From Candidatus Rokubacteria bacterium GWA2_73_35 (GTDB taxonomy: Bacteria > Methylomirabilota > Methylomirabilia > Rokubacteriales > CSP1-6): 37,688 bases of DNA. The stretch covers positions 1-37,688 of the forward strand of contig MGBU01000233.1 in the NCBI GenBank assembly GCA_001790205.1, given 5' to 3'. Below the pieces are notes generated by a model. The model was not told the origin of the DNA. It saw only the letters and a program-made list of their open reading frames with translations, and ran no database searches. Made by a program: the position numbers and the translations under genes. The number at the start of each line of letters is the position of its first letter. Position 1 is the stretch's first letter. Of this stretch, positions 13,138 through 36,379 are shown piece after piece.

Positions 13138-13177
13138 GGCACCGCACCTCCTCATCGGGGCCGCCGCTGCTCGTCTG

Positions 13178-18978: not shown

Positions 18979-19281
18979 GCAAATCCTTCTCGAAATCTCG
19001 CAGTGGCACTGAAATCCTCCCCGCGCTCGCCCGTCTCCTCGCCAAGAACGAGGGCGCGGGCAACGGCGCCCTCGTCGAGACGGCCGACCTCGACGACGCG
19101 CTCCGCTGGTCCTCCCGGCAACCGGAGAGTCCCGCGCTCCACTTCTTCCGACCCATGCCGGACGCCAGGTCGATCTGGTCCTTCATGCCCCGGACCGCCT
19201 CCTGGCCATCGAGGTCTCCGTCGCTCCCTCAGCTACGGTCGTCCTCGGACCCGCGCTGGTCATGCAAGTATTCCTTGAAAT

Positions 19282-19300
19282 TTTGCAGCATCGCTGCAAA
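19282..19300. promoter_or_regulatory. perfect 8-bp inverted repeat TTTGCAGC-ATC-GCTGCAAA upstream of the second DUF4143 ATPase
   Basis: Read directly. It lies in a locally AT-rich stretch (19262-19305), 10 nt before the proposed GTG start at 19311. Confidence 0.4.
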
Positions 19301-19310
19301 TACTACCGGC

Positions 19311-20591: not shown

Positions 20592-20620
20592 GAGCCTCGA
20601 GCATCTTCGCCTTCGGGCCA

Positions 20621-20854
20621 TCACTTGCCGAGCGACTCGATCAGCCTGGCCCGTATACCCAAGATGGTCAGTCCCACAACCTCCTTCTTCTTCTCGTCGT
20701 ACCGGACCACCACCCCCTGACTGAGGTCGACTCCAGCAGCCTTCCGCGGCTTCCCCAGGCTCAGGTAGAGCACGTCGGCTTCCTCGTCGTAATACCAGTC
20801 GAGCCGCTCTTTCTTCTCAAGGATCTTCACCGTGTCGACAGGCGTTGCCTCCAT
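20621..20854 (-). CDS. DUF2283-family small protein (antitoxin-like)
   Basis: Internal ATG 20854 of track ORF 20621..21031. Reads MEATPVDTVKILEKKERLDWYYDEEADVLYLSLGKPR...VVVRYDEKKKEVVGLTILG, with the YDxEADxLY signature. No DUF4258-type partner is recognisable next to it. Confidence 0.7.
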   Translation of the reverse strand: MEATPVDTVKILEKKERLDWYYDEEADVLYLSLGKPRKAAGVDLSQGVVVRYDEKKKEVVGLTILGIRARLIESLGK

Positions 20855-20925
20855 CTCGCCAGTCGCCTGGCGAAGTATGCCGTGGCGACGAATCCGTCGT
20901 CGGCGCCTGCTTCCTTGTTCCTCGA

Positions 20926-23175
20926 TCATAAGCGGAGGCCGAGTTCGCTCGAATACGGGGCATCGATTACCCAGATGCCATCCGCCCGATCGTGTCTCAG
21001 GTCGTATTGCCGGTATCGCAGGGATCGCCACCGTACCGGGATGAGCAAGGCATTTGCCTCTAGCCAGAGTCCATTCGCCATCAGATCGCGGTATTCAGCT
21101 TCGAGACAGGCCGGGAGAACGTCGACCGACGAATCAGCAGATTCGATCACGCTCTCCACCCAGTCTTCGTGGGCACCAGCGAGCGCGCGATCCTCGAATT
21201 CCGTGAGTCCTGAGTGATTCAGCCCCGCTAGAAACTCTGTCTCCTCCTCACCGGTGTAGCCACCAGCGTAGACGCGGTCCGCACGTTGGACGAGATCCGA
21301 CTCACTGACCAGTCCTGCCGCACCGGCTTCGAGCAGTTCGACGACGGATCGGCGAACGAGATCCTGTGGGTAGAGCGGATGTGCAGACGATTGCGCCTCG
21401 AGGAGTTCGACCGTCGCTGGAGACACCTGGGACCCGAAGCGGTTGACGCGCCCCATGCGCTGCACCAGAGCATCGATGGGCGCGGGCTCGGTAATGAGGC
21501 GCTCGAAATCGATATCCAGGCTGACCTCGACGACTTGCGTGGCGACGAGCAGGCTGGGTAACGGACCGCCACCGGTGAGTGCCCGCTCTTTACAGACACG
21601 GTCGCGGCGGTTGAAGCGCCCATGCAGGAGCATAGGGCTCGCCTCACCGGACAGCTGACCCCGTAACCGCTCGTACGCATCCTGTGCAGTGCGGACGTGG
21701 TTGCAGACAAGAAGGGTGGCCGCACTCCGACGCAGCTCGGAGGCAGAAATCTCCGCCACCGTCCCAGGACGGTGGACTACCCGATGACGGGCGCGAAGCA
21801 GCACGTCGCGGTCCGTCGCGTCACTCTCCAAGGGTACGACGGTAGGCCCGATCCGTGAGAGCGCCTGACGAATGAGCCGTTCAAGAAACGCGGGGAGCGT
21901 GGCCGACACGAACGCGCAGCGCCCGCCCCACCGCTCAACCAGCTGCGTTGTAGCGAGCACGAGTCCGGCGATCCGCGGCTCGTAGGCGTGCACCTCGTCG
22001 AAAATGAAGAGCGCCCCGCGGAACTCTCCGAGCGCCAGTTCCCAGCCTTTGCCGCGGAGCGCCTGGCGCAGGATCTGGTGGGGGGTACATACCCGAAACG
22101 TGAAACCCATCTCTCGCGCGAGTGTCGCAACCTGCTTCGCGACGGCCTGCTGACCCAGCCGGGCGGACAGATCGTCCGGTCGCTCGCGCAGCCCGTAGAT
22201 CGACTCTGCCGCGCGACCATGCAGGATGCCAGCGGGGAAATGCCGCCCGCAGTCACTCGGGCAGTCTGGTCGGTGTTCGGCAAGCCTGCGCCGCATGGCA
22301 TCTATGCTTGCGGTGTGCGGCAGGACGTAATACACGCGACCCGCCCGTGCTTGATTAGCTTGTGCCCACATCAGCGCGGCCTCGGTCTTCCCGCTTCCGG
22401 TGGGCGCGCGGAGCAGCAGGTGGCCGCGCACCTCTGCGGCACGCTGTTGAAAACCACGAGACTGGACCGGAGCGATGTCAATGCGCTTGAGGTCAACCGG
22501 GGGCGGCGGGTCGACGTGCGCGCTCGCCATGTGATCGCACGTCACGAGCAGCCCACGCAGCAACGCGGCGCGCAAGCGCTCCTCGGCCCGGAAGCTTCGG
22601 CGCTGCGAAGCGGCATGCGTCCCGCGCACGAGCCACCTGAGGTCAAGGCGAAGCGCAACGGGAGTCAATGTGGCAGGGAGACCGAGCTCAGGAGCAATTG
22701 CACGCAGATCCGCCCAGCACCGTCGCCAAGCACGGTCGTTCTCTTGCAGTTCCCTGGTCATGCGGTCAAAGGCCCCTGACGACTCCCCTTCCAGTGGTAG
22801 CTGTTCCCATGGTAGTTGCCCCGCCTCGACTTCTATCCCGTTACCGGGAAGCGTCTTGTGGTGTGTCAGCACTGCGAGCAGAACCTCAGGGGCCAAGCTG
22901 GGAACGGAGGATGCGAGCGAGGCCGACAGGATCTCGTGGCGTAGACCATCCCACCCAGGCCGCTGGCCTCGTAGCACCTCCTGGAAGCCGAGCGCGGCCT
23001 TGCCCACGTCATGGAACAGGATCGCGAGGCGGAGATCGGCGGAGAGCCGTTGCTTCTGGTCCTCGTCGAACGGCAGCCCTTCGATTACTCGGTCGGCCAC
23101 GTGCAGGCCTCGCCGCACGTGGTCGACGAGCGGTTCGCCCGTACTCTTCGCCAGCACAGAAACCTCGGGGGTCAT
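20926..23175 (-). CDS. cas3: CRISPR-associated helicase/nuclease Cas3 (HD + DExH helicase)
   Basis: HD domain (LAILFHDVGKAALGF, LTHHK). Helicase motif I APTGSGKTEAAL and motif II FIFDEVHAYE. ATG 23175 sits just after GGAGG and shares ATGA with the cas5 stop. The upstream part of the 837-aa track ORF is read-through. Confidence 0.9.
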   Translation of the reverse strand: MTPEVSVLAKSTGEPLVDHVRRGLHVADRVIEGLPFDEDQKQRLSADLRLAILFHDVGKAALGFQEVLRGQRPGWDGLRHEILSASLASSVPSLAPEVLLAVLTHHKTLPGNGIEVEAGQLPWEQLPLEGESSGAFDRMTRELQENDRAWRRCWADLRAIAPELGLPATLTPVALRLDLRWLVRGTHAASQRRSFRAEERLRAALLRGLLVTCDHMASAHVDPPPPVDLKRIDIAPVQSRGFQQRAAEVRGHLLLRAPTGSGKTEAALMWAQANQARAGRVYYVLPHTASIDAMRRRLAEHRPDCPSDCGRHFPAGILHGRAAESIYGLRERPDDLSARLGQQAVAKQVATLAREMGFTFRVCTPHQILRQALRGKGWELALGEFRGALFIFDEVHAYEPRIAGLVLATTQLVERWGGRCAFVSATLPAFLERLIRQALSRIGPTVVPLESDATDRDVLLRARHRVVHRPGTVAEISASELRRSAATLLVCNHVRTAQDAYERLRGQLSGEASPMLLHGRFNRRDRVCKERALTGGGPLPSLLVATQVVEVSLDIDFERLITEPAPIDALVQRMGRVNRFGSQVSPATVELLEAQSSAHPLYPQDLVRRSVVELLEAGAAGLVSESDLVQRADRVYAGGYTGEEETEFLAGLNHSGLTEFEDRALAGAHEDWVESVIESADSSVDVLPACLEAEYRDLMANGLWLEANALLIPVRWRSLRYRQYDLRHDRADGIWVIDAPYSSELGLRL

Positions 23176-23960
23176 ACGCCTCCGGCTGCCTGCGACCAGG
23201 CGTGAAGGTAGACCGCATCGTCCGAGCCCTTGGCGTTCGAGGGATGAAAGAGATCGTTGCCCTGGACGTGGTGCAGATCCTCTGCGCGCTCCTGCGCCGA
23301 GAGGTCCGCGTCCGAGGGATGAAAGAGATCGTTGCCCTGGACGTCGAAGCGCATGCCGTCTGCCGTCGGCGGCAGGCTGATGAAGCGCCCAACCGCTCCA
23401 ACGCGACGAGGCTGACCGAAGGGCCCTGCCTCGAACCACTCGGCCAGGGTGAGCGGCAGCCCGTGGCTCTGAACGGCGTCACGAGCAACGAGAGTCGCGC
23501 CGATGGCACCGCGCTGCACCGGGACCAGCGACACAGGGCGCACGAAGACGACCCAGGCGACGTCCTCCGAGCGCCCAAACCTCGGCGTGGCCACCGGAGA
23601 CTCGAACACCGCACTCATCGCGGCCGGAACCACGTACAGATCGAGACTCGGCGCGACATGAAACTGCCTGCGTAGCAGGCCAGGACCTTTGCGATGCTCC
23701 CTGAGCCGCCCACGCTCCAGCGTCCAGCGTCGCGTCCTTTGGAGATCCATCGCTTGGCCGCGATAACGGTACTCGAAGCCCACTCGCACCTCGTGCGGCG
23801 ACACAACCCGTCCCGCGCACGCACTGATCATCCCGAGGACGTTCGTGTATGCGGGGACGGGAAGACTCGCTTGCGTCCCGCTGATGAGCAGAGGCTGCCG
23901 AAACGAGGCCGTCAGGCCCTCGAGCCGGACATGGACGCCGTGCAGCGTCAGCGGAGGCAT
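23172..23960 (-). CDS. cas5: CRISPR-associated protein Cas5 (type I-B/Cas5t-like)
   Basis: MPPLTLHGVHVRLEGLTASFRQPLLISGTQASLPVPAYTNVLGMISACAG is a typical Cas5 N-terminus. ATG 23960 overlaps the cas7 stop by 13 nt. The track ORF begins at TTG 23996. The C-terminal tail contains the duplicated peptide VQGNDLFHPS (next feature). Confidence 0.75.
   Translation of the reverse strand: MPPLTLHGVHVRLEGLTASFRQPLLISGTQASLPVPAYTNVLGMISACAGRVVSPHEVRVGFEYRYRGQAMDLQRTRRWTLERGRLREHRKGPGLLRRQFHVAPSLDLYVVPAAMSAVFESPVATPRFGRSEDVAWVVFVRPVSLVPVQRGAIGATLVARDAVQSHGLPLTLAEWFEAGPFGQPRRVGAVGRFISLPPTADGMRFDVQGNDLFHPSDADLSAQERAEDLHHVQGNDLFHPSNAKGSDDAVYLHAWSQAAGGV
23233..23344. repeat. two 37-nt direct repeats (36/37 identical) separated by a unique 38-nt segment, inside the cas5 3' end
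   Basis: Copy A at 23233-23269 is GCGTTCGAGGGATGAAAGAGATCGTTGCCCTGGACGT. Copy B at 23308-23344 is GCGTCCGAGGGATGAAAGAGATCGTTGCCCTGGACGT. Identity stops abruptly on both sides. The 75-nt period has the same repeat/spacer geometry as the main array. Confidence 0.6.
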
Positions 23961-25306
23961 TCGGTCAGCCACGAGGCCGCCTGAAGAGGGGTGCAAACCA
24001 CGAACGACGCTCGAGCAAGCTTCGCGCGGAGCTCGTCGGTCGAGACATCGAGGCCCCCGGGGGACAACTGCCGGACCTCATGCTGGTTGTCGAGGTAACC
24101 CTCGCGGATCCCGACGAACACGGGCGTCGCGATCCTGCTCGCGTAGTCGCCGACGACCTCCGTGAGCCGCTGGGTGTTCAGCCGGGGACCGTCTTCGCTG
24201 TCGGTGAACAGACGGTTGAAGATGGGATTCCCGCACGACAGCCCGGCCAGGATCAGGGCCTTGGGCGCCACGTCGGTTGCGAAGGCCGCCTGCTTGGCGC
24301 CGCCGCGCAACACCGCGAGCGCTTGGATCAGCCGTCGGCTCCGTTCTCCGGCCACTGAGCGATCCTTGAGGCGGTAGATCCTACCGAGCGGGCCGCGGTC
24401 CTCGGCAAGCTCGATCTTCCCCTCCTTCATCCATGTGTCTACCCGATGCGGGTCGAGTTCCTTCCGGTCCCCGAGGTTCCAGAAGACGCCGACACGCGCG
24501 CGGTCTAGACAGAAGATGCCCTCGAGATGGCTGTTGAAGAACCGGGTGCTGTATGGCAACGGTGATTGCGGATTCGGCATCGGCGAGCGGTCCGCGATCG
24601 AGTGTTCCTTGACGAACCCGCGCGCAATTGCCAGAGCGTCCGTGACGGGCTTGCCCCTGATCTGTTTCTTGAAGGCTTCTTTCTTCGCCCTCGGAACATC
24701 GGCGATGTCGGCGGTGTCTATCGCTCGCTTCCACTCTTCAAGCTCGAGCGCGGCCGGATCATGAGACTGCACGTGGACGAAGCCATCGTCCCGCCCCTGC
24801 CAACCGTCGGACCGAATGGACGCAAGGACTGAGGCGGCAAGCGGAGAAGCCCGCATGACGGCCGCGATCGTGTCGGTGCCCGCGTCGGGCACGACATCCT
24901 CGTCAGTGGCATCGTCATCGCCGACGGCCGCTTCGCCAGCGCTGAGACGCCTACCCTGGCCTTCGGCAGCGCGCATGTAGCCGAAGAGGTCGTCCTCGGC
25001 GTAGTCGATGGGGTTCACCTGTCCCGCTACCTTGCTGGTGTTGCCTTGAGCGTTCCACGCGATCGCACGAATCTCGCTCGTGGGCCAGCCGGTCTCTTCG
25101 ATCAGTGTGTTCCGCAGCCACCGCCGCCACGCCTGTGCGGAAACGTAGGGCACTGAGCGCTGTCCTTCCCTGAAGCTCTTATGAACCGTCGTCGTCCGGT
25201 CTTCCCCTGACCCGAGGCCGGCCCCATTGAGGAACGCGGCGCGGGCTTCGATGAGAAGTGTGCCTGCGACATGTTGCAGTGAGGGTCGTCCAGGTGCCTG
25301 GTTCAT
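23948..25306 (-). CDS. cas7: CRISPR-associated protein Cas7 (Cst2/DevR-like), unusually long (452 aa)
   Basis: AAFLNGAG, SVPYVSAQAWRRWLRNTL, EDDLFGYM, LAVLRGGAKQAAF. ATG 25306 shares ATGA with the cas8b stop. Confidence 0.8.
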   Translation of the reverse strand: MNQAPGRPSLQHVAGTLLIEARAAFLNGAGLGSGEDRTTTVHKSFREGQRSVPYVSAQAWRRWLRNTLIEETGWPTSEIRAIAWNAQGNTSKVAGQVNPIDYAEDDLFGYMRAAEGQGRRLSAGEAAVGDDDATDEDVVPDAGTDTIAAVMRASPLAASVLASIRSDGWQGRDDGFVHVQSHDPAALELEEWKRAIDTADIADVPRAKKEAFKKQIRGKPVTDALAIARGFVKEHSIADRSPMPNPQSPLPYSTRFFNSHLEGIFCLDRARVGVFWNLGDRKELDPHRVDTWMKEGKIELAEDRGPLGRIYRLKDRSVAGERSRRLIQALAVLRGGAKQAAFATDVAPKALILAGLSCGNPIFNRLFTDSEDGPRLNTQRLTEVVGDYASRIATPVFVGIREGYLDNQHEVRQLSPGGLDVSTDELRAKLARASFVVCTPLQAASWLTECLR

Positions 25307-27291
25307 GCCGGCTCCTCCACTGGAGTTGGCTGCACGGCGATGAGCCGTCGTGCGGCGTTGCATACTGCGAGTCCGAGCTGGAACGCCCGCCGCGTCCCGT
25401 CAGGCTCTTCGAGCCAGTCGCGCCAAGTGCGCGAAGAGAGCGGGGCTCGTCGTTGGGGCGAACTGAGACGCTCGCCCAGCCACTGTGTGCCCAGGCGCCG
25501 CGCCAGCCACGGCCGGACGATGTCTCGTTCGAGCCGGTGCGCTCCCCGCACCGTGACGTACTCGACGAGATAATTCTGGAGTGCGGCCGCGACGACGCCA
25601 GGAAGGGCCGAATCGGACATTGGCGTCGCGGCCGGCTCGGGCCACGGCGGTCGTAGGACGCGCCGAAGCGCGTCCTCACTGAGCCGGGCCGCCAGGTGTA
25701 GCCGGGTCTGGAACACCCACTCTCGCGCGGCGAGTCGCCCATGCCCATCGAGCGCCAATGCGCTCCAGGCGACGAAGGTGAATCCCTCCTCGCGCCACGC
25801 GCAGGCCAGGAACTGGTCCCGCAGCCATCCGTCGTCCGTCCGTTCGGCACGCGCGACGAGATCGCGGACGAACTGCGCGCCGCGAACCGTGAGCAGTCGA
25901 TCGAGGACGCGGTCGGCGATGAAGGACACCGTGTCGGTATCAGCAAGTGCCGAAGGCGGCTCGCCATGTTTGCGCCCGTTCCTGGCGGTCTGGTGAACGT
26001 AGTACCCCAGCACTTTCCACCCATCTCCGGCCACAGCGACGCCTGGCCCGTCGCGCACCGGAAACAGAGACCGATAGTCGGCGAGCGAAAACCGCCCTTC
26101 GCCGGCCATCGCGACCATCGCCAGGCGAACGCGAGCCCGAAGCTCGGAGCGCCGGAACGCCTCGGGCTTGCGGAGGCTGTCGAGATCGTCCTTGCGACGC
26201 ACGGCGCCAGTCAGTGCGGTCGCGATCGCGTGAGCCACTTCCAGCGCGCAAGTCGTACGCCCCAGGACACGCGTCTGGTAGAGTTCGAACAATGGGACGG
26301 ATGCACCGGGGTGTTTTGCGCGCGGGTACAGCGGATCATAGTCACGACCTTCCTCGAGGCACCTCAGCATCCCCGGCGTCCATTCAGTGTCCTTTCGCGG
26401 CTCGCTGGCCATGAGGCGTTCGATTTCCGGGCCGAGCCCGGCGTGCACAACGTCGCGAAGGAACAGAAGCGCCCGACTGGGAAGCTCTTCGAGCGCGACG
26501 TCCGCCCGATCGCCGGCATTCGTGAAGTACCAGGCGAAGACGCGTGTCTTGGAATCCACGACGCCGAGCCGCTGCTGGAGTCGCAGCGCGTCAAGGACGC
26601 TGAGGAGCCGCCGTGCGAGCGCCCGCTTCCCCTCCTTAGTGCCGACCGTCGCCACGTCTCCTGCCTGTTCTCGGACCCGTACGTGGTCGTACAGATCCCG
26701 AACGAAGATGTCTGCGAAGTCCGGCGGCGCAGACTGCAAAACCGTCAGGCGTCCGTCGACCAGCAGGAGAGCGGATGGGAGCAGCCGGACCGCGAGCAGG
26801 CAGCGCGCGCAGGTGTGCGGACTGCCGCTAGCCGCCGGCCATAAGTTGGCCTCGGTGGCGGCGCCCGCAAGTGGGAGCCAATCACGCCCGAACGAGGGCG
26901 TCCTCCCGGCCGAATCTTTCAGTTGACGGGCATCCAAGCTGCGCGGGGCGCCGCACACCTCGCAAGGAACATTGTTGGCTTCCCGGCCCATCGCGTCGCG
27001 GATCCTGACGAGGAGGGACGCATAGTTCTGGACGTGAGCCTCGCCTGGCTTCTGTCCCTTCAATTTCGGATTGTGCAGTGGCGTGTTGCTCCCGAAGACC
27101 GGGATGAAGGCCTTGAGCGGCTGCTGCCGGCGAGCCAGCGCAATGCCGTCGCCGACTATGTTCTTCAGGTGCTCATCCGTGAGCACCTCCACGCTGTCGA
27201 GGTGAGCCATAGCGGCCGCAATCGACAGGCCCCAATCGACGAAGGGATTGCCAGTCAGGACTCCGAAGGCCTTCGGAGGACGATCACCCAT
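25303..27291 (-). CDS. cas8b: type I-B large subunit, Cas8b (Cst1-like)
   Basis: 662 aa. The N-terminus FGVLTGNPFVDWGLSIAA and the Cys pairs CEVCG...CARC recall Cst1/Cas8b1. It occupies the canonical slot directly upstream of cas7-cas5-cas3. ATG 27291 overlaps the upstream ORF by 8 nt. The family call is by recollection only. Confidence 0.7.
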   Translation of the reverse strand: MGDRPPKAFGVLTGNPFVDWGLSIAAAMAHLDSVEVLTDEHLKNIVGDGIALARRQQPLKAFIPVFGSNTPLHNPKLKGQKPGEAHVQNYASLLVRIRDAMGREANNVPCEVCGAPRSLDARQLKDSAGRTPSFGRDWLPLAGAATEANLWPAASGSPHTCARCLLAVRLLPSALLLVDGRLTVLQSAPPDFADIFVRDLYDHVRVREQAGDVATVGTKEGKRALARRLLSVLDALRLQQRLGVVDSKTRVFAWYFTNAGDRADVALEELPSRALLFLRDVVHAGLGPEIERLMASEPRKDTEWTPGMLRCLEEGRDYDPLYPRAKHPGASVPLFELYQTRVLGRTTCALEVAHAIATALTGAVRRKDDLDSLRKPEAFRRSELRARVRLAMVAMAGEGRFSLADYRSLFPVRDGPGVAVAGDGWKVLGYYVHQTARNGRKHGEPPSALADTDTVSFIADRVLDRLLTVRGAQFVRDLVARAERTDDGWLRDQFLACAWREEGFTFVAWSALALDGHGRLAAREWVFQTRLHLAARLSEDALRRVLRPPWPEPAATPMSDSALPGVVAAALQNYLVEYVTVRGAHRLERDIVRPWLARRLGTQWLGERLSSPQRRAPLSSRTWRDWLEEPDGTRRAFQLGLAVCNAARRLIAVQPTPVEEPA

Positions 27292-28021
27292 TGGCAGTTC
27301 CTTCCTCCAGCGGCTGCGTCGTCGGCTCGATCCCCTGCTCGGCCAGCCACTCGCGCGCCGCCGCGTGCAGCCGCTCGTCCCGGAACGCGAACCAGCGCTC
27401 GCGCTCGGCGGGGAAATCGAGCAGGACGTTCTTGAACCGCCGGAAGGCGCCGCGGCCGTCGAGGGCGACCTCCAGTCGGTCGCGCAGCCGCGCATCGCCC
27501 ACCGTCTCGGCGAATTCCGCCATCCACCCGTACTCGATCCGCGAACCCAGCGGCTCGACGGGGATCAGGTGGCCTGCGGCCAGCGCGTCGTCGAGATCCT
27601 CCTCCGACGGCCAGTCGTCGTCTTCGCCGAGGCGGTCAATGGGGACCATCTGGACCTCGCCCGTCCGCACGTCGAGATAGAAGCTCCACTCGGCGGGATT
27701 CGAGGTCAGCGCCATCTCGAGATCGTCCCAGTTCACCGGGACCCGCCTGGGCAAGCCCGCGGGTCGAGGTTCGTCCCGTCCCAGCCACGCCAGAATCCTC
27801 TCCCGCGCGGTCGCCTCGAACTCGTCGCCGTAGAAGCGCAGGAACAGGGCGCGGCGCACCGCGGCCGGCGAGGCGTGCGGGTCCCGCGCCAGCACCGAGG
27901 CGCGCACCAGGGCCCGCGCCGTCGCGCCCATCGAGCAGCCCATCTTCAGGCGTTCCTCGGGCGAGCGCGCGAGGAGCATCGCCCGGTAGCGCTGCATGAC
28001 CTCGGGCGGGGTGTCAGTCAC
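27284..28021 (-). CDS. two-domain protein: N-terminal helical module fused to a UPF0158-like C-terminal domain
   Basis: GTG 28021 overlaps the NTase stop by 8 nt. The N-terminal part is MTDTPPEVMQRYRAMLLARSPEERLKMG...LFLRFYGDEF. The C-terminal part is WSFYLDVRTGEV...IEYGWMAEFAETVGD...LDGRGAFRRFKNVL...WFAFRDERL...WL, matching my memory of the UPF0158 family. Confidence 0.7.
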   Translation of the reverse strand: MTDTPPEVMQRYRAMLLARSPEERLKMGCSMGATARALVRASVLARDPHASPAAVRRALFLRFYGDEFEATARERILAWLGRDEPRPAGLPRRVPVNWDDLEMALTSNPAEWSFYLDVRTGEVQMVPIDRLGEDDDWPSEEDLDDALAAGHLIPVEPLGSRIEYGWMAEFAETVGDARLRDRLEVALDGRGAFRRFKNVLLDFPAERERWFAFRDERLHAAAREWLAEQGIEPTTQPLEEGTANG

Positions 28022-28583
28022 CGAGCGCCTCCCGGTACAGGGCGCCGAGCCCGAGGCGCTCGGTCCAGTGCGCCAGGTACTGCCTGTCCAGGTCGGGCAC
28101 CGACCTCAGGAGGTTCCTGACGTCGGCGAGCTGGACCTCCGAGCGGCTCTCCCGCATCCAGTCGAGCTTGGAGATGATCAGGTCCTCGGGCGCGACGAGG
28201 GCGATCCCGTGGCCCTCGATGGAGCCGCGCCGCTGCCGCGCGAACTCCGTACTGCGGTACTCGCTGTCCTTGCGGACGATGCAGTCCACCTTGATCACGT
28301 AGGCCTGGTGGATCAGGTTGAACGCGCTCCGGCCGGCGATGGCGGCGCCCACCGCGTCCCGGTCGAGATAGAAGTCGTCCTCGAAGAGGGCGCAGAACCG
28401 CTCGGTGTCGCCGGGGGACAGCTCGACCACGAGGTCGATGTCGCGCGTCATGCGTGGCACGGCGTAGTAGTTGGCCGCGAACGATCCGGTCACCATGTAG
28501 GCGATCCCGGCAGCCTCCAGGCGCCCGGCCATCATCGCGAGAACCTCCAGCTCTTCGGTCACCCGCGTGCCCCAGCGTCCCAC
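28014..28583 (-). CDS. nucleotidyltransferase-fold protein (DUF6036-like)
   Basis: IAYMVTGSFAANYYAVPRMTRDIDLVVEL is a G[SG]-x(9-12)-D-x-D pol-beta-type NTase motif. 189 aa from GTG 28583; the start could be a few codons downstream. Confidence 0.65.
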   Translation of the reverse strand: MGRWGTRVTEELEVLAMMAGRLEAAGIAYMVTGSFAANYYAVPRMTRDIDLVVELSPGDTERFCALFEDDFYLDRDAVGAAIAGRSAFNLIHQAYVIKVDCIVRKDSEYRSTEFARQRRGSIEGHGIALVAPEDLIISKLDWMRESRSEVQLADVRNLLRSVPDLDRQYLAHWTERLGLGALYREALGD

Positions 28584-28620
28584 CGACCTCTGACAGGGAA
28601 GGTCACAGCAGGCGCCATCC

Positions 28621-30012
28621 TCACCCCGGCCGCGGGAGTCCCAGCTCGCCCCACATCCAGCCGAAGTCGTAGGCGGGGCGGCCCTCCAGGCGCTCGCGGG
28701 CCGAGAGGTTCTCCATGTCCTTGAGGAGCGCGATCAGCTTGGGGCGCGCGGACTTGAGGCCCGCGGCCTCGCGCGGCGTGCGGCCGCCGAGGGCGGGCAG
28801 CGGCTCGTCAAGCCAGCCGCGGTAGTGGCGCTCGTAGAAGGCCTGCACGATCTCGGCGGCAACTTCAGGCGGCACCTCGTCCACGGGCCGGGCGGGCCGG
28901 CGGTCGCGGGCGCCCGGCCGGGCGCGCCGGCGGTCGAGCGCCCGCGCGACGCTCTCGGAACTCGTGGCCCGGTACGCGACCGCGGGGCCGGCCGCCGCCT
29001 CGAGCAGCGCGCGCCCGCGCTCGGCGCGCTGGCGCGACATGGTCTCCAGCGCGACGCGCCCCTTCTCGAGCACGAAGGTGCCGAAGCCGCGGCGAAAGCC
29101 GGCCTCGTCGGCTTTCTCGGCGAGCCAGGCGTAGCTGCCGTCGTCCTGGCGCTCCAGCTCGGGGTGATTCGCGAGCGCGGCCTCCAGCGCCGCGCGGTCG
29201 CGCACGTCGAAGACGGCGCGGCACAGCACCACCTCATCCCCTTCGGCGGTCACCGAGGTCGGCAGCGGGCGCCGGGCGACCAGCTCGAGCCAGAGGTCGT
29301 GGAAGACCATGCCGATGTTCTTGAAGAAGGTCGGCTCGTCGCGGCGGGGCAGCTTGCCGCGCAGCGAGCGGCTGAGCCGTCGCAGGAGGCGGAGGATCAG
29401 CTCCTTCGCGCTGGCCGGGTAAAGGTAAGGCGAGCCGTCGAGGATCGGCTCGCCGTCGGGCCCGAGGACGACGCGCGCGGCGAGCACGTCCCACTGGACG
29501 AGCTGGCGCGTGGCGAGACGCTCCCGCACCCGGACGCGCTTCTTGGCCCAAAGGTCGAGGAGGTCGAGCCCCTCGTCGAGCCGCACGGCCTGGACCTCGT
29601 AGGGCCGGAGGTGCGAGAGGCGCATCCGCTCGAGGTAGCGCCGCTCGCCCGAGCGGAGGCCCCTGCCCTCGCGCGCGAGAAATCTCTCGACGATGGTCCC
29701 GCCCCCGTGGAGCGGGCAGTCGAAGGCGAACCACTCGTGGAAGCCGATCCGGCTCTGCTCGAAGTCCATGGCCTCGCGCGCCTCGGCCTCTGTCAGCCTG
29801 GCGAGGCGCCGGCCCCAGAACGTCAGCTCGGCGGCGGCGCGGTCGCCGTCCAGCTCGGCGCGCCGCGAGAACCGCATCAGGCGCTGGAGCGCGCTGTCCC
29901 GCTCCGCCGCCGTCCACGCGCCCGGCGCGGGCGCGTCCTTCCCCAGGCAGCACCGCTTGTACTTCTTGCCGCTGCCGCAGGGGCACGGGTCGTTCCGGCC
30001 GACGGCGCTCAT
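28621..30012 (-). CDS. SEC-C metal-binding-motif protein (463 aa) of unknown function
   Basis: The N-terminal NDPCPCGSGKKYKRCC is the SEC-C zinc motif. The C-terminal LGGRTPREAAGLKSARPKLIALLKDMEN resembles DUF2384/Xre-antitoxin-type tails. ATG 30012 shares ATGA with the cas6 stop. Confidence 0.8.
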   Translation of the reverse strand: MSAVGRNDPCPCGSGKKYKRCCLGKDAPAPGAWTAAERDSALQRLMRFSRRAELDGDRAAAELTFWGRRLARLTEAEAREAMDFEQSRIGFHEWFAFDCPLHGGGTIVERFLAREGRGLRSGERRYLERMRLSHLRPYEVQAVRLDEGLDLLDLWAKKRVRVRERLATRQLVQWDVLAARVVLGPDGEPILDGSPYLYPASAKELILRLLRRLSRSLRGKLPRRDEPTFFKNIGMVFHDLWLELVARRPLPTSVTAEGDEVVLCRAVFDVRDRAALEAALANHPELERQDDGSYAWLAEKADEAGFRRGFGTFVLEKGRVALETMSRQRAERGRALLEAAAGPAVAYRATSSESVARALDRRRARPGARDRRPARPVDEVPPEVAAEIVQAFYERHYRGWLDEPLPALGGRTPREAAGLKSARPKLIALLKDMENLSARERLEGRPAYDFGWMWGELGLPRPG

Positions 30013-30971
30013 GCGCCGCGTCCGTCCCCGGCGTCGCCAGGCTCAATCCGGTAGCCGCCGAGACCGAAGGTGGTCGCGCTGCCGACGTGGGTCCATTGGC
30101 CGAACACGAGGTACGGCCAGAACGGCTTCAGGTCGCCCCGATACGTGACCGCGCCGGCCAAACCCTCCCACTCCATGCGCCGGTCCTGGCGGCCGGAGTA
30201 GCGCACCCAGCGCGTCCAGCGCGTCTCGTCCCGCTCGATCACGACGGACTGCGCCCGCTCGATGAAGTCGCGGAAGTCCAGGTCGAGCGGCCCCGGCCCG
30301 TGAAACCGCGCGAGCGACGACAGGCGCCCCAGCAAGCGGCGGAAGACGACGTGGAAGTCGGGCCGGCGCGCGAAGCCGCCGTCGTGCTTGAGCCGGGTCT
30401 GGGTCACGAAGCGGACGCGGACGATGTCGCCCGGGCACGGCACGTCGAGACAGTCCGCGAGGCTCAGGCTCAGATCGTGAGGCCGGACCAGGTTGTCGTT
30501 CCGATCGTACACGGTCGCGGCGAGATCCGTCAGGGGATGGACCGCCTCGATTCGCCGCAGCGCCACCGCGCGGCGGCCCCGGCCGATCCGGTCCACCTCG
30601 CGGAGCGTCACCACGAAGTGCGGGAGGAGCTCGCGCGCCCGGCCGACGAGCGTGAGATCGAACGCCACCCGGCTCCCCGGCGGATAGTCCGGCGCGCCCG
30701 CGGGCGGCGGCGCGATCACAAAGGGACGGGGGATCTCGTCATGGGTCCGGAGCGCCTCGGCGTCCGGCGGCGGCGCCGTCTCGAAGACCAAGTGATACGG
30801 GCAGGACGCGGGCGCGGGGCACGGCTCGCCGTCGCGGGCGAGACAGCAGAGGCGGCGGAACGCCCGGCCGAACGCGCCGCGCAGGGTGGAGCCGAGGTAG
30901 GCGGGAAGCTCGAGCGGCTCGAGAGCCTCGAGCGTGACGCGGTAACGGGCGAGCGCGAGCGAGGCGCTCAT
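30009..30971 (-). CDS. cas6: CRISPR pre-crRNA endoribonuclease Cas6 (RAMP)
   Basis: LPAYLGSTLRGAFGRAF near the N-terminus and a C-terminal glycine-rich loop HVGSATTFGLGGYRI. ATG 30971 shares ATGA with the WYL regulator stop. Confidence 0.85.
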   Translation of the reverse strand: MSASLALARYRVTLEALEPLELPAYLGSTLRGAFGRAFRRLCCLARDGEPCPAPASCPYHLVFETAPPPDAEALRTHDEIPRPFVIAPPPAGAPDYPPGSRVAFDLTLVGRARELLPHFVVTLREVDRIGRGRRAVALRRIEAVHPLTDLAATVYDRNDNLVRPHDLSLSLADCLDVPCPGDIVRVRFVTQTRLKHDGGFARRPDFHVVFRRLLGRLSSLARFHGPGPLDLDFRDFIERAQSVVIERDETRWTRWVRYSGRQDRRMEWEGLAGAVTYRGDLKPFWPYLVFGQWTHVGSATTFGLGGYRIEPGDAGDGRGA

Positions 30972-32026
30972 CGGGTTCGTGCGAGCGGGCGGCGCCCGGC
31001 CGGCCGCCGCACCGAGCCTGCCTGCGCCCTCGCGGCACGGGCGAGCGGCTTGCGGGCGAGCGCCAGCGCCAGGCGCTCGGCCTCGCGGCGGATGGCCTCG
31101 CGCAGCGCCGGGGGCGCCAGCACCTCGACCTCGCTACCGAAGCCGAGCAGCCACCGGCGCACCTCGAGCGTGTCGGCGACCGTCATCCGCAACTCCAGCC
31201 GGCCACCGGGAAGCTCGCGCAGCTCCTGGCTGGCATGCCAGAGCCGCCCGCGCACGTGGGGCGCCGCGGCGCGGGAGAAGACGGCGCGCACGCCGACCAG
31301 ATCCCCACGCACGATGCCCCACGCGCCACGCAGGTACGCCTCGGCGTCGAAGTCCGCCGGCATCGCGAACGTGTCGCGCAGCGCCGTGACGGTGCGGATG
31401 CGCTCCACGGCGAAGATCCTCACGTCGCGGCGGAGATGGCAGTGGCCGACCAGGTACAGGCCACCGTTGAAGAACGTCAGATGGTAGGGATCGACGCGTC
31501 GATCGGTCTCGGCGTCGCGGCTCAGCGAGTAATAACGCATCTGGAGCGTGCGCCGCTCGGCGAGCGCTCGCTGGATCTCGGCAAGGTGTCCGCTGCCGGC
31601 CGACTGGAGCTTGGCACCGACGGCGCGGGCGCCGATGCTGGCGCGCAGGCGGTCGACCAGCTCGAGGGCCCGTGGCGCGAGGAGCGCCCGGATCTTCCCG
31701 AAGGCGGAGGCCAGGGCGGAGCTGAAGGGGCCGGCGCCGCCGTGATCGAGCAGGTCGCGGCTCACCAGCAGCGCCACGACCTCGGGGAGCGACAGGGGCA
31801 CCGGCAGCCGATCGCGGAAGGCCACCTCGACCTTCCAGAGGCCGCGGCGGCCTTCGCGCTCGTCGTAGATCGGGAAGCCAACCTCCTGAAGGACCCGGAG
31901 GTCGCGCCAGACCGTGCGGACGGTGCAGCCGAGCTCCCGGGCGGCGTCCTCCACCGCGAGGCCCGGCGGCCGGCCGAGGAACTGTAGCAGGCGCCACTGG
32001 CGTGCGAGCTGGTCCCCCCGCGGCAT
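30968..32026 (-). CDS. HTH + WYL domain transcriptional regulator (YafY-like), CRISPR-linked
   Basis: The N-terminal winged HTH reads RQWRLLQFL...LGCTVRTVWRDLRVLQEVGFPI. The WYL region reads RRVDPYHLTFFNGGLYLVGHCHLRRDVRIFAVERI. Confidence 0.85.
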   Translation of the reverse strand: MPRGDQLARQWRLLQFLGRPPGLAVEDAARELGCTVRTVWRDLRVLQEVGFPIYDEREGRRGLWKVEVAFRDRLPVPLSLPEVVALLVSRDLLDHGGAGPFSSALASAFGKIRALLAPRALELVDRLRASIGARAVGAKLQSAGSGHLAEIQRALAERRTLQMRYYSLSRDAETDRRVDPYHLTFFNGGLYLVGHCHLRRDVRIFAVERIRTVTALRDTFAMPADFDAEAYLRGAWGIVRGDLVGVRAVFSRAAAPHVRGRLWHASQELRELPGGRLELRMTVADTLEVRRWLLGFGSEVEVLAPPALREAIRREAERLALALARKPLARAARAQAGSVRRPAGRRPLARTR

Positions 32027-32035: not shown

Positions 32036-32065
32036 ATTGTGCGGGGCTCACCCGTGCGCTGTCAA
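32036..32065 (-). promoter_or_regulatory. candidate sigma70-type promoter for the WYL-cas operon
   Basis: Minus strand reads TTGACA (32065-32060), 18 nt, then CACAAT (32041-32036), 9 nt before the ATG at 32026. Sequence match only. Confidence 0.3.
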
Positions 32066-32097: not shown

Positions 32098-32475
32098 TCA
32101 GCTCCGGGCCCCGCCGGGCTCCTGACCGCGCGCGAGCTCGATCGGCCGGCCGTGCGGCGTGGCGCGCACGGCGCGGTCCCACTCGTCGTGGCGGCGCCGC
32201 TGCGCCTCGCGGGAGGCGAGCCCCTTGGCCGCCACGAGCGTCTCGAGCGCGGCGAGCCAGTGCTCGTAGTAGCCGGTGGCCGTGTCGCCCCGCTGCCGGG
32301 CGGCGCCGATCTCGGCGGCGAGCGCGTCGGTCCATTCGCGCCAGGTGAAGCAGCCCCGCTCGTGGAGCCGCACCGCGAGCGCGAAGGCCTGCGCCTCCCA
32401 CGGCTCGGCGAAGACCGGGCCCTCCCGGTCCCGCGGGATCGCGGGCAGCGCGTCGAGGTCGGGGCGCTCGCTCAC
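32098..32475 (-). CDS. nitrile hydratase accessory (activator) protein
   Basis: GTG 32475 forms a GTGA overlap with the upstream stop. Reads VSERPDLDALPAIPRDREGPVFAEPWEAQAFALAVRLHERGCFTWREWTDAL, typical of beta-homologous NHase activators. Confidence 0.75.
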   Translation of the reverse strand: MSERPDLDALPAIPRDREGPVFAEPWEAQAFALAVRLHERGCFTWREWTDALAAEIGAARQRGDTATGYYEHWLAALETLVAAKGLASREAQRRRHDEWDRAVRATPHGRPIELARGQEPGGARS

Positions 32476-32831
32476 CGGTCGCCCTCGGGGTCGAGGTAGT
32501 CGTCCCAGAGGTCCACGTAGATCGCGTCGCGTGGCGAGGCGTCCGGCCCCCACAGATCGCGCGCGGCGAAGCGGACGCTGTAGACGTGCTGCGGCTTCCG
32601 CCCGAGCCCGGCGGCGTGCGTGTCGGGGAAGACGAACACGCCGTGGTCGCGGGCCACCACGCCGCGCCGCCCGCGCACGTAGCGCGGCAGCCGCGTGTGC
32701 CCGACGGGGTTGACGTTCTTCGCGATCACGCGGTCGCCCGGTGCGAACCTCGCCGCGAGGGGCTCGTGGACGCGCGCGCTCCCGCCCTTGAGGATCATGC
32801 GCCCGACGTCGGCGACCGCCAGCACGCGCAT
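32472..32831 (-). CDS. nitrile hydratase beta subunit, C-terminal half as a separate ORF
   Basis: ATG 32831 overlaps the upstream TGA by 1 nt. Reads RFAPGDRVIAKNVNPVGHTRLPRYVRGRRGVVARDHGVFVFPD...HVYSVRF. Confidence 0.85.
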   Translation of the reverse strand: MRVLAVADVGRMILKGGSARVHEPLAARFAPGDRVIAKNVNPVGHTRLPRYVRGRRGVVARDHGVFVFPDTHAAGLGRKPQHVYSVRFAARDLWGPDASPRDAIYVDLWDDYLDPEGDR

Positions 32832-33145
32832 CAGCGCGCCTCCCCCCGCCGCAGCACGGCCACGCGTGCCTCGAGCTCCTCGCGCGTCAGGAGACCGCGT
32901 TCGACCAGGAGGTGCTCGAGGCCCCAGAGCCAGTGCTCGTAGTAGCTCGCGGCCAGGTACCGGGCGGGCGGCATCTGCTCGCGGGCCCAGCGCGACATGT
33001 CGATGTTCCACTCGCCGAGGAAGCCCGCCGCGAGCGTGAGCGCGAACGCGCGCCGTTCCCACTCGGCGTGGAAGACCGGCTCGTCGGCCTCGGCGACGAC
33101 GGGCCCGAAGCCGTGCAGGCCGCCGAGGTCGTGCACGCCGTTCAC
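32831..33145 (-). CDS. nitrile hydratase beta subunit, N-terminal half as a separate ORF
   Basis: GTG 33145 forms a GTGA overlap with the alpha stop. Reads [16 protein letters not shown]...[18 protein letters not shown]...YYEHWL. Confidence 0.85.
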
Positions 33146-33777
33146 CGCGGCCTCCGCTCGGGCGCCTTCGGCCGGCCGACGCCGATCATCGAGTCGCGCG
33201 TGACGAGCGCCGCCAGCTCCTCCTCGCTCCGCCCCTCGGTGTCGGGCGGGCGCTCGGGCAGCACGAGGTAGCGCACCTCGGCGGTCGAGTCCCACACGCG
33301 GACCTCGACCTCGTCGCCCACGGCGACGCCGAACTCCCTCAGCACGCCGCGCGGGTCCAGGACCGCGCGCGACCGGTACGGGGGCGACTTGTACCAGACC
33401 GGCGGCAGGCCGAGCACGGGCCACGGGTAGCAGGAGCAGAGCGTGCACACCACCATGTTGTGCACGCGGGGCGTGTTCTCGAGGACGACCATGTCCTCGC
33501 CCTGCCGCCCGGTGAAGCCGAGCTCGGCGATCGCCGCGCTGGCGTTCTCGAGCAGGCGCTTGCGGTACGCGGGGTCCACCCAGGCGCGCGCGACCACCCT
33601 GGCGCCGTTGCGCGGCCCCACCCTGGCCTCGTAGAGGTCGATCAGCTCGTCGAGCGCCCGCGGGTCCACGAGCCCCTTCTCGGTCAGCAGGGACTCGAGC
33701 GCCTTGACGCGGAGCTCGGTCTCCCCGAGCGGCGCGGTGTACTCGACGTCGTGCTCGTGCTCGTGACCGCCGCTCAT
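33142..33777 (-). CDS. nthA: nitrile hydratase alpha subunit, cobalt-type metal site
   Basis: [10 protein letters not shown] metal-binding claw (Thr variant = Co type). Reads [10 protein letters not shown]...[19 protein letters not shown] 33777 shares ATGA with the upstream stop. Confidence 0.9.
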
Positions 33778-36377
33778 CCGCTCTCTCCTCCGTAGATCCG
33801 CCGGTACTCGTCCCAGGCGAGGATCACGCGCTTCACGAAGTGGCGCGTCTCGTCGTACGGGATCTGCTCGACGAACGCCTCGACGTCGTCGGTCCGCCGC
33901 GCGCTCCACCACCGGCGCAGCCGCGCGGGCCCCGCGTTGTACGCCGCCAGCGCGAGCCGGGGGTCTCCGAATTCGCGCAGGAGGGCCGCGAGGAAGCGCG
34001 TGCCGAGCCTGAGGTTGACCGTCGGGTCCTCCAGGTCGCCCGTCCGCCCGAGGGGCCGGACCGTGGCCGGCATGAGCTGCATGAGGCCGCGGGCGCCCGC
34101 GGGCGAGACGGCTCCCGGATGATAGCTCGACTCCTCGCGCACGACCGCGGCCACGAGGTAGGGGTCGAGGCCGGCCGCCCGCGCCGCCTCGACCATCGCC
34201 TCCCGCCAGCCGAACGGGTAGAGCATCCGCCAGAACGCGGCTGGCAGCGCGGGGTCGCCGGTGGCGGCGGGCGCCGCGAACCAGCGCCGGAGGATCCTGA
34301 GCGCCAGGTGGTAGCGCTCCGCCTGCGCGTACGCGCCCGACAGACCGTAGAGCCGCACGAGATCGCCCGCCGCGCGCTGCACGACGTCCTCCGTCTCTTG
34401 CCACGCGGGCTCGGCGAGGCCGATCCGCCGCAGCAGCTCGATGCGCGCCCACCGCGGGTCGTTCGCGAGCGCCGCGGCCGGCTCCGCCGGCAGGCTGATC
34501 GACGCCCGTGCCGCCGGGCCGGCGGGCGCCGCGGCCCGCGCGGCGGCGAGCACGCCGTAGTAGCTCCGCGGCGCCGTGGCGAGCACCCGCGCGTAGGCGC
34601 GCGCCGCCTCCGCGGCCTCGCCGGTCTGCTCATGCGCGCGCGCCGCCCAGTAGAGCGCGGGCAGCCGCCACGCCGGCGCGGCGGCGCCCTCCGCGACCCG
34701 GTCCCAGCTCTGCGCGGCCTCGCGGCCGGCGCCCCCGAGGTAGGCGAGCCAGCCGAGGCGCCAGAGCGCGGCGCTGGCGGCGTCGCGGCCCGGCAGGCGC
34801 GCCGCCGCCGCGCGATAGGCGTCGGCAGCCTCCGCGCCGCGGTCGAGGTCCTCGAGCAAGCGCCCGCGCTCGTAGAGGGCGTCCGCCGCCTCGGCCGCGG
34901 CCCCGCCCGCGCCCACCTCGGCGTAGAGGCGGAGCGCCCGCGCCTGCTTGCCCGCGCGTGCGAGGAGGCGCGCCTGCTCGAGGCGCAGCGCGGGGCGCTC
35001 CGGGGCGGGCGCGCGCGCCAGCATCAGCTCGAGCGCCCGCGTCGCGAGGTCCCACCGGCGCAGGCGCCGGGCGCCGTCCACGACGATCCGGAGCGCGCGG
35101 AAGGCCAGGCCGCCCGTCCGCGTCTCGTCCACGATACGCTCGGCCTCGGTCGTGGCGGCGTCGGCAACCCCGCCGCGGAGCAGCCGTTCGGCGCGCTCCA
35201 GGCGCTCGGCGAGAGTGAGGGGCGGCAGCCGCACGCCGAGCCCGTCGAGCGCGCGCAGCCGGTCGCCGGCGCCGTCGGCCCAGTCGCTCGCCGGGGCCAG
35301 GAGGCGGAGCTGCCGGTACGTCCGTGCGGCCAGCTCGAGCCGGCCCTCGGCCTCGGCCGACGCGCCGAGGAGGTAGAGCGCCCCGGGAACCTCCGGCGCG
35401 TCGGGGTAGTCGCCGATCAGGCGCGCGAGCACGGGCTGCGCGGCGGCGTCGCGGCCGGCCCCGAAGTCGAGCGTCGCGGCGAGCAGCAGCGCCTGCGGCG
35501 CGAGCCGGCTCTCGCGCCAGCGGTCGCCGACGCTCAGGGCCAGCGCGCGCGCGCGGCTCGGCTCGCCACGCGTCGCGAGCGCCTGCGCCAGCGCGAAGCG
35601 CACGTGGTCGCCGATCGGGCTCGCGAGCGCCGCCTCGCGGCCGAACTCGCGGATGAGCGGGTCCGGGTCGCCGCCCTGCCACGCCGCGACCGCCGCCGCC
35701 CACGCGCGCTCGAGCTCGGGCGTGACCGCCCGCGGCGGGCCGGCCAGCGCCGGCGCCGCGCCGAGGAGCAGCGCCGCGGCCGCGAGGGCGGGGAGGACCG
35801 TCGTGCCGCGGGTCGCCCGCCGCGTGAACGCGATGCGCTGCAGCGCGGTGAGGTTCGAGAGGACCGCGAGCGTCCAGAGCGCCGGCTCGAGCAGGCCGAG
35901 GAGGGCGCCGGCGATCAGGCAGATCATCCGCTCGGGCCGCTCCATCATCCCCACGGTGCACGCGACGCCGATCGACTCCGCGCGCGCCTTCGTGTAACTC
36001 ACCATGATCGAGCCGATCAGGCTCACCATCGCGACGATCGCGCCGCGCGTGTGCGGCACCCGGACGAAGAGCACGACGATGCCCAGGAGCACCACGAGGT
36101 CCGAGTAGCGGTCGATGACCGAGTCGAGGAAGGCGCCGAACGCCGTCACCTGACCGGAGGCGCGCGCGAGCGAGCCGTCGAGGAAATCGCAGAGGCCCGC
36201 CACGATCAGCAGCAGGCCGCCCGCGCGGACGTGCGCGGCGGAGAACGCCGCTGCGGCCAGGCCGCTCACGCCGAGGCCGATGACCGTCAGGTGGTTCGGC
36301 CGGAGGCGGAGCCGGAACAGCGCGCGGCCGACGGGGTCGGTCCACGCGCGCACGGGTTCGCGATAGCGGCCGAGCAT
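33774..36377 (-). CDS. single 867-codon frame encoding a CDP-alcohol phosphatidyltransferase domain followed by a signal-like segment and a soluble lytic transglycosylase (Slt70-like)
   Basis: The N-terminal part has the motif [30 protein letters not shown], i.e. D-x2-DG-x2-AR-x8-G-x3-D-x3-D. Then comes [27 protein letters not shown], a helical repeat region, and the SLT domain ([32 protein letters not shown]). There is no stop and no ATG/GTG/TTG between the two parts. Confidence 0.7.
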
Positions 36378-36379
36378 CG

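Follow-up and report, generated by a model that had tools for sequence, protein, structure and literature searches.

Toxin-antitoxin (TA) modules and MNT/HEPN modules are reportedly common in defence islands and in CRISPR-cas loci, as Makarova and co-workers are said to have set out between 2011 and 2013. Among characterised systems, the closest to the locus described here is MenAT1 of Mycobacterium tuberculosis (Rv0078B-Rv0078A; PMC10435456; PDB entries 8AN4 and 8AN5). Its toxin, MenT1 (Rv0078A), extends the acceptor stem of tRNA, an activity that requires T39, D41, K137 and D152 (PMC10435456). CreTA comprises CRISPR-regulated RNA toxin-antitoxin pairs which addict cells to type I Cascade and were first described for subtype I-B; it consists of two small RNAs, of which the antitoxin, resembling a CRISPR RNA (crRNA) and carrying degenerate repeats, needs Cascade to repress the toxin (PMC9458426, PMC10097628). 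The locus considered here lies in a 37,688-nt stretch of the genome of Candidatus Rokubacteria bacterium GWA2_73_35 (contig MGBU01000233.1), referred to below, at its full length, as the window. Three non-cas genes occupy about 2.7 kb between cas6 and cas8b of its CRISPR effector operon, and encode a SEC-C protein, a nucleotidyltransferase (NTase) and a fusion of a helical domain with a UPF0158 domain. With a probability of roughly 0.55, this trio is a composite, self-maintaining and exchangeable cassette of the TA type, selfish or addictive in nature, which has arisen and rides in cas operons, rather than a set of new Cascade subunits. All coordinates are positions in the window, and the genes of the operon lie on the minus strand. 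Its head reads as follows.

32036-32065, minus strand: sigma-70-like site (TTGACA-18-CACAAT) 5' of the WYL gene, from which the whole operon is probably transcribed
30968-32026, minus strand: WYL-domain regulator (HTH_PafC + WYL + WCX; Pfam WYL E=1.3e-23, WCX E=1.1e-18; PADLOC CRISPR-associated WYL E=1e-39)
30009-30971, minus strand: cas6 (Pfam CRISPR_Cas6 E=1.2e-18; PADLOC Cas6 E=2.6e-93)
28621-30012, minus strand: SEC-C protein, 463 aa (Pfam SEC-C E=1.1e-9)
28014-28583, minus strand: MenT1-like NTase, putative toxin (longest open reading frame, 189 aa; profile match to 8AN4; Pfam DUF2204 E=8.4e-5)
27284-28021, minus strand: fusion protein, 245 aa (Pfam UPF0158 E=3.5e-12, residues 107-234)
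27767-28021, minus strand: N-terminal helical domain of the fusion, aa 1-85, partner of the NTase and putative MenA1/Rv0078B-like antitoxin (free-standing homologue)
27284-27739, minus strand: UPF0158 domain of the fusion, aa 95-245 (Pfam UPF0158 E=3.5e-12)
25303-27291, minus strand: cas8b, large subunit (PADLOC Cas8b E=9.3e-20)

Every open reading frame (ORF), motif, coordinate and overlap recorded in an earlier note on this DNA was found again, with a single refinement: most NTase homologues are 182 aa long, so that the GTG at 28562 is a likelier start for this gene than position 28583. The WYL stop and the cas6 start share 4 nt, the TGA of cas6 and the ATG of the SEC-C gene overlap as ATGA, and 8-nt overlaps join the NTase stop to the fusion start (GTGACTGA) and the fusion stop to the ATG of cas8b (ATGGGTGA). 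From the WYL gene to the small DUF2283 gene at the operon end, the sole gap is a spacer 3' of the SEC-C stop, of 58 nt (37 nt if the NTase starts at 28583). Between 20000 and 32500 only one promoter-like site was detected, at 32065-32036, 5' of the WYL gene, and the seven terminator-like matches in this region are not above chance (shuffled expectation 4.8 +/- 2.2). Since the genes are packed so tightly, co-transcription of the trio with the cas genes is the simplest reading, as the note had held. Its statement that the three genes are not recognised cas genes also stands: the Cas models of Pfam, NCBIfam and PADLOC matched none of the proteins, the predicted structures of the SEC-C protein and the fusion had no fold match in the PDB at E<1e-3, and the idea that a known Cas subunit had been overlooked was rejected.

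Pfam places the NTase weakly in DUF2204/NTP_transf_5. A family profile built from 30 homologues matched MenT1 (8AN4) with E=1.8e-5, residues 8-177 of the query aligning with 7-181 of the chain, while the single sequence reached only E=0.21. T39, D41, K132 and D147 are invariant in the 30-homologue alignment and fall on T39, D41, K137 and D152 of MenT1, the residues required for its activity. On these grounds the protein is a MenT1-like nucleotidyltransferase, putatively a toxin that extends the 3' ends of tRNAs. Outside CRISPR loci, a free-standing pair is found among metabolic genes on contigs without cas genes (L090-L093; L numbers denote the related contigs compared with the window): its NTase is 80% identical to that of the window, its 82-aa partner is 81% identical to residues 1-81 of the fusion, and the two genes share the same 8-nt overlap. 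The suggestion that the NTase and its helical partner resemble a TA pair is borne out by this arrangement and by the likeness of the enzyme to MenT1.

The 245-aa protein is a true fusion of the NTase partner with a UPF0158 protein, given the free-standing homologue of its first part and the 78% identity of residues 91-235 to a stand-alone 153-aa UPF0158 protein encoded directly after SEC-C in L006. Its UPF0158 domain (PF03682) scores 47.1 bits against a cut-off of 21.1 bits, over residues 107-234, and carries a conserved basic motif, GRGAFRRFK. The partner domain weakly resembles the antitoxin MenA1/Rv0078B: the window domain matched Pfam Rv0078B with E=0.016, and nine of 14 family members matched it as well (best E=5.6e-4), all below the 27.1-bit cut-off. 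A PDB sequence search with the whole fusion returned no match, and its AlphaFold2 (AF2) model (pLDDT 84.6) found no PDB fold at E<1e-3. In one cas-less copy (L117:3285-3996) one ORF encodes the partner domain (85 aa) and another the UPF0158 domain, which indicates that the fusion has been made or broken more than once.

Compared with MenAT1, the pair thus shows the same size of NTase, a full-length alignment with the TRDxD motif and the four catalytic residues, a short helical partner weakly resembling Rv0078B/MenA1, overlapping genes and a free-standing form. It differs in its toxin-first gene order, in the fusion of the partner to UPF0158, in its place within a Cascade operon, in the Pfam assignment of the NTase to DUF2204/NTP_transf_5 and not to DUF1814, and in the sub-threshold likeness of the partner. 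With CreTA the cassette shares its position in or next to a type I cas operon and a toxin expected to hit translation or tRNA function; unlike CreTA, both of its components are proteins. No copy of the 37-nt CRISPR repeat was found outside the array on either strand, allowing up to 10 mismatches, and identity with CreTA was rejected for this lack of ectopic repeats in the window. Moreover, the pair persists without any cas gene, so it cannot addict the cell to Cascade in the manner of CreTA. Like the MNT/HEPN modules, it is a small two-gene unit of NTase type in a CRISPR-cas locus, and the window holds a second such unit (MNT with a candidate HEPN, 18299-18978). Unlike them, the cassette sits not beside the locus but within its effector operon, where it separates cas6 from cas8b and has reading frames that overlap; it travels with SEC-C and UPF0158, and recurs ahead of three type I subtypes.

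The SEC-C motif of the third protein (PF02810; 38.5 bits against a cut-off of 20.4, residues 6-23) is an N-terminal CxC...CC zinc motif, and C10, C12, C21 and C22 are invariant across 30 homologues. Such a metal-binding motif of about 20 residues, CxC...C(C/H), is shared with YecA, YchJ and the C-terminal zinc domain of SecA, from which the protein differs in the N-terminal place of the motif and in the other 430 or so residues, which show no similarity. Membership of the YecA or YchJ families was rejected, the NCBIfam matches covering the 20-residue motif only, at 25-33 bits against cut-offs of 140-158. A PDB sequence search likewise found the 20-residue motif alone (1SX0, 9L6B), and the AF2 model (pLDDT 83.8) had no match at E<1e-3 in the PDB or among predicted viral structures; the best fold matches of the SEC-C and fusion models are marginal, to Lrp/AsnC-type and eIF2-alpha-like proteins. 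The C-terminus reaches 17.7 bits with PF09722 (Xre/MbcA/ParS-C, DUF2384; cut-off 24.5), and this match recurs in distant homologues at 19-24 bits, always below the cut-off.

The body of the SEC-C protein belongs to a very large family (4502 clusters at E<=1e-3, 414 at E<=1e-30). Relatives occur on Sphingomonad and Rhizobial plasmids, beside resolvases and TA genes, and some are fused to PRiA4_ORF3, to DUF7309+DUF6930 or to HEAT repeats. On actinobacterial plasmids UPF0158 is itself fused to PRiA4_ORF3; through these fusions, present in both families, the SEC-C body and UPF0158 become parts of a single domain network of mobile-element passengers. That the SEC-C body might be directly related to the actinobacterial 'UPF0158 family proteins' was considered and rejected, for they show no direct similarity; their PRiA4_ORF3 fusions are found in different proteins. 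When genomes were scanned with the full SEC-C alignment, matches to the zinc motif predominated; about eight full-length distant homologues from other phyla were usable (23-31% identity), and these had no cas, NTase or UPF0158 neighbours. Metagenomes were scanned with the motif removed. As a separate observation, a Fic/DOC-domain gene lies directly 5' of SEC-C and UPF0158 in L158 (3777-6967), and a Fic-like fragment 5' of a PRiA4_ORF3-UPF0158 fusion on a Rhodococcus plasmid (L179:1256-3432); this may be a recurring link or a coincidence.

The trio is strongly linked to cas loci, and is therefore not a one-off. Close homologues come almost all from high-GC soil contigs of Rokubacteria/Methylomirabilota-like organisms. 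On contigs long enough to judge, the order WYL-cas6-SEC-C followed by NTase-fusion or by UPF0158 precedes varied modules: I-B in the window, I-D in L002/L131, I-G in L003/L004/L147, and modules of the DevR type with cas3 first in L006, L007, L094 and L139. In 12 of 13 loci the cas6 stop still overlaps the SEC-C start by 4 nt; in two of these, Cas6 has no more than 39-40% identity to the window protein. Among more remote SEC-C proteins (44-51% identity), one is encoded within an I-G-like locus (L169), and others open an I-D operon that has cas6 at its far end (L173/L174). Upstream sequence of at least 2 kb was available 5' of SEC-C in 33 metagenome loci: intact cas or WYL genes adjoin SEC-C in 12, WYL or cas6 stumps alone in nine, and merely the last 80-100 nt of cas6 in four, whereas eight bear no trace of either gene. 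The linkage of SEC-C to intact or vestigial WYL/cas6 (25/33) is far above chance expectation. A divergent cas6 was suspected upstream of SEC-C in L149, L156, L161, L164, L167 and L168 and rejected, PADLOC having found none in the upstream ORFs. As the note had supposed, the trio does not seem to have been described as CRISPR-associated: no paper was found linking UPF0158 or SEC-C to CRISPR or Cas6, and the main text, taken without its supplements, of a 2018 preprint on CRISPR-linked genes held nothing relevant.

In many loci the intact trio stands without any cas gene. In L097 and L098, homology to the window spans the promoter and the WYL gene to about codon 100 and then jumps to the SEC-C start; it begins in L097 at about 32069, retaining the promoter stretch. 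In both, the stop of the WYL stump overlaps the SEC-C start as GTGA, and the flanking genes encode MacB/FtsX, LigB, Ldh_2 and xanthine dehydrogenase. In L099, L104, L106 and L111, homology extends from 80-100 nt 5' of the SEC-C start to about 30 nt short of the fusion stop. A 45-bp direct repeat, which is the 3' part of tRNA-Arg(TCT), adjoins the trio in 19 of 80 metagenome loci. Six of these 19 contigs have a copy on both sides of the trio, and the others have one on one side or end too soon. Over a stretch of 3323 bp that takes in the repeats, L104 and L106 show 99.6% identity, and they differ outside it. The full tRNA-Arg(TCT) gene is present in L114 (47-123), and no integrase was found in the units flanked by tRNA fragments. 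The 45-bp repeats also form arrays (L114:47-5171; L104:297-8277; L106:4120-7447; L121:480-1371). The units that they delimit include, besides that of the trio (3.1-3.3 kb), one of 0.85 kb with a DUF433/DUF5615 TA pair and one of 1.9 kb with a beta-helix protein, as if mini-islands had accumulated in tandem at a single tRNA gene.

Decay and exchange at the edges of the cassette could be followed in other comparisons. At the site where L007 has a full locus, the relics L095 and L096 keep a 29-aa WYL stump, the tail of cas6 and the last 84 residues of SEC-C together with a complete NTase and small partner. Between L130 (1027-4036) and the window (32100-29067), near-identical strains, WYL and cas6 are 98-100% identical in nucleotides. 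The drop to 78-97% coincides exactly with the cas6/SEC-C junction (window about 30001) and marks a sharp recombination breakpoint. Between loci, SEC-C may be 52-65% identical while NTase and fusion hold 70-87%. The components also occur in other combinations: SEC-C with a stand-alone UPF0158 and no NTase (L006), cas6 with NTase and fusion and no SEC-C (L094), SEC-C alone (L008, L132), and a trio interrupted by an extra Phd/PIN pair after SEC-C (L002). The ratio of non-synonymous to synonymous substitution rates (dN/dS) between the window and cas-less copies is 0.15-0.45 for SEC-C, NTase and fusion, which shows that the trio genes are under purifying selection. These observations speak against the view, expressed in the note, that the trio is not a self-contained insertion. 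They also weaken its proposal of an addiction module that safeguards the cas operon, since the cas genes on either side of a retained trio are readily lost.

A selfish or addictive nature is indicated by the way in which the cassette outlasts its cas neighbours, recombines at its boundaries and appears in repeat-flanked units. It would have originated at the WYL-cas6 head of type I operons and would be made of two parts. One would be a MenAT1-like TA pair whose antitoxin is fused in frame to UPF0158: the NTase would add nucleotides to the 3' ends of tRNAs and block translation, and the helical partner, product of the next gene, would bind it directly and so neutralise it. The other would be the SEC-C protein, which with UPF0158 would belong to a domain network typical of mobile-element passengers. 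A single transcript from the WYL promoter would run WYL-cas6-SEC-C-NTase-fusion-cas8b-cas7-cas5-cas3, in which translation of SEC-C would be coupled to that of cas6, and translation of the fusion to that of the NTase and of cas8b alike. Ongoing expression of the operon would supply antitoxin; were the cassette lost or silenced, the toxin would be set free and growth would stop. Such addiction would stabilise the cassette and, beyond it, no more than the head of the cas locus. In this scheme we infer co-transcription, and likewise any effect on CRISPR immunity. On present evidence the pair would behave like MenAT1, its membership on the antitoxin side being weakly indicated.

Several points weigh against the selfish cassette. 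The partner falls below the Pfam cut-off for MenA1 and had no match to MenA1 in the PDB, and the toxin gene precedes the partner gene, the opposite of the menA1-menT1 order. Toxicity, neutralisation and the tRNA target are things that we infer. A simple two-gene TA module does not explain why most cas-less copies keep the trio together; nor would a plain pair account for the coupling of cas6 and SEC-C, the presence of SEC-C in three subtypes or its retention with the TA pair. The kept cas6/SEC-C overlap and the SEC-C relatives found in I-D and I-G loci away from cas6 point instead to a Cas-related function. Finally, the metagenome contigs are non-independent samples from essentially one phylum.

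A rival explanation is a dedicated accessory or effector module of CRISPR, in which SEC-C would be made in a fixed ratio with Cas6 and work with it or with the crRNA ribonucleoprotein (crRNP). The NTase and the antitoxin-UPF0158 fusion would then form a Cas-coupled abortive-infection arm, a protein analogue of CreTA, with the NTase released or the antitoxin consumed once Cas6 or Cascade is inhibited or engaged. The recurrence of the cassette behind WYL-cas6 ahead of I-B (window), I-D (L002/L131) and I-G (L003/L147), the 4-nt overlap in 12 of 13 loci, the 8-nt overlap of fusion and cas8b, the WYL or cas6 sequences, intact or vestigial, directly 5' of SEC-C in 25 of 33 loci and the SEC-C relatives in L169 and L173 speak for such a module. 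Against it speak the facts that trios stay intact at a dN/dS well below 1 in loci that have lost every cas gene, that the NTase pair stands free elsewhere at 80% identity, that SEC-C (L094) or the NTase (L006) is dispensed with or SEC-C left alone (L132, L008), that more distant SEC-C homologues (23-55% identity) often have no defence neighbours, and that ectopic repeats of the CreTA type are missing; we regard this explanation as unlikely. Its boldest form makes the trio a new protein-based guard of type I CRISPR, a mobile and subtype-independent counterpart of CreTA for I-B, I-D and I-G. Here SEC-C, in step with Cas6, or UPF0158 would sense the state of Cas6, crRNP or Cascade, and inhibition by a phage would free the NTase and stall translation by modifying the 3' ends of tRNA (or crRNA). 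This form seems distinctly improbable.

At the other extreme, the three genes may be neutral hitchhikers, unrelated small mobile or TA-like genes gathered at a permissive junction of a defence island, with incidental co-transcription, no effect on the stability or function of the CRISPR locus, and an unrelated task, such as housekeeping or regulation, for SEC-C and UPF0158. Other TA-like genes do abound in these loci (Phd/PIN in L002, UPF0175/DUF3368 in L006, and MNT/candidate HEPN, DUF2283 and a DUF4143 ATPase in the window), the components vary in combination and position, and most of the SEC-C body family lives outside CRISPR contexts. Chance assembly nevertheless fits poorly with an exact order and overlaps kept over many diverged loci, with four catalytic residues invariant in 30 NTase homologues, with intact ORFs at dN/dS <1 and with decayed loci that preferentially keep the NTase pair, and neutral hitchhiking appears rather unlikely. 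It is very unlikely that SEC-C and UPF0158 regulate the WYL-controlled operon, for example as a sensor or co-repressor tuning cas expression, with the NTase pair inserted later. An older SEC-C/UPF0158 pair would fit L006, L158-L160 and L164, where SEC-C is followed by a stand-alone UPF0158 without NTase, and regulation would suit both the cas-less relics that keep the promoter and a WYL helix-turn-helix stump fused to SEC-C and the basic motif of UPF0158. Pfam, NCBIfam and fold searches, however, revealed no DNA-binding or known regulatory domain in either protein, many SEC-C loci have no WYL gene, and no evidence ties either protein to transcription.

The presence of TA and MNT/HEPN modules in defence islands is already known. 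What is new is the placement inside the operon with overlapping frames, the fusion of an antitoxin candidate to UPF0158, the SEC-C partner that recurs with them and a portability that spans I-B, I-D and I-G; no paper describing such a cassette was found. If the selfish cassette is real, it offers a clear natural case of a protein TA cassette wired into the reading frames of Cascade, and a record of how cas genes decay or are swapped among I-B, I-D and I-G while the cassette survives. It would then bear on the keeping, loss and reshuffling of costly CRISPR loci in uncultured soil phyla. MenT-type toxins would gain a further phylum and an architecture new to them, in which the toxin gene leads and the antitoxin is joined to UPF0158, and both UPF0158 and the SEC-C-headed family, with its thousands of members, gain a testable context. 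Should the Cas-coupled minority view prove right, a new portable abortive-infection arm of type I CRISPR would be at hand.

The remaining features of the locus, which lie downstream of the trio, are the following.

23948-25363, minus strand: cas7 (Cst2/DevR; TIGR02585 E=1.1e-31)
23172-23996, minus strand: cas5 (TIGR01895 E=3.4e-16)
20926-23439, minus strand: cas3, HD + helicase (TIGR01587, cas3_core, E=9.6e-61; cas3_HD E=1e-15)
20621-21031, minus strand: DUF2283 small protein, end of the operon (Pfam DUF2283 E=2e-7)
16890-18062, minus strand: cas1
16595-16924, minus strand: cas2, called by position and sequence
15982-16656, minus strand: cas4, called by position and sequence
13175-15868, plus strand: CRISPR array, 37 repeats of 37 nt

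The longest-ORF start of cas3 is probably placed too far upstream. The array and adaptation genes sit downstream of the effector operon, and the contents of the locus (cas6, cas8b, cas7, cas5, cas3, cas1, cas2, cas4 and array) fit type I-B. The DUF2283 protein has homologues in L003, L008 and L173 and its place shifts: in the window it follows cas3, in L003 (8740-8970) it follows the fusion, and in L173 (9448-9729) it precedes SEC-C; it is a further candidate for a small accessory or TA-like gene. The second NTase of the window, of the MNT type (18490-18978; Pfam NTP_transf_2 E=4e-10; PADLOC PDC-S09), is followed downstream by a 64-aa ORF (18299-18493) which, as a guess from its own sequence, may be a truncated HEPN partner. 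A DUF4143-type AAA ATPase (PADLOC PDC-S01, E=4.5e-88) is encoded between cas3 and cas1 on the other strand (region 18299-20591), and the genes for MNT/candidate HEPN and for the ATPase recur in L006, L008 and L139. GC content is 74-80% in the flanks (1-13000 and 32100-37688), 63-69% in the cas region (13000-27000) and intermediate, 72-74%, in the region of the trio and WYL-cas6; the contrast between flanks and cas region fits horizontal acquisition of the CRISPR-cas module. Near the end of the window (36652-37660) lies a 496-bp tandem duplication of 2.0 copies and 99% identity, which may be a recent real event or an assembly artefact, and the ORFs at 36380-37159 and 33774-37655 begin with the same N-terminal sequence (MARPNRTQLAGRL...).

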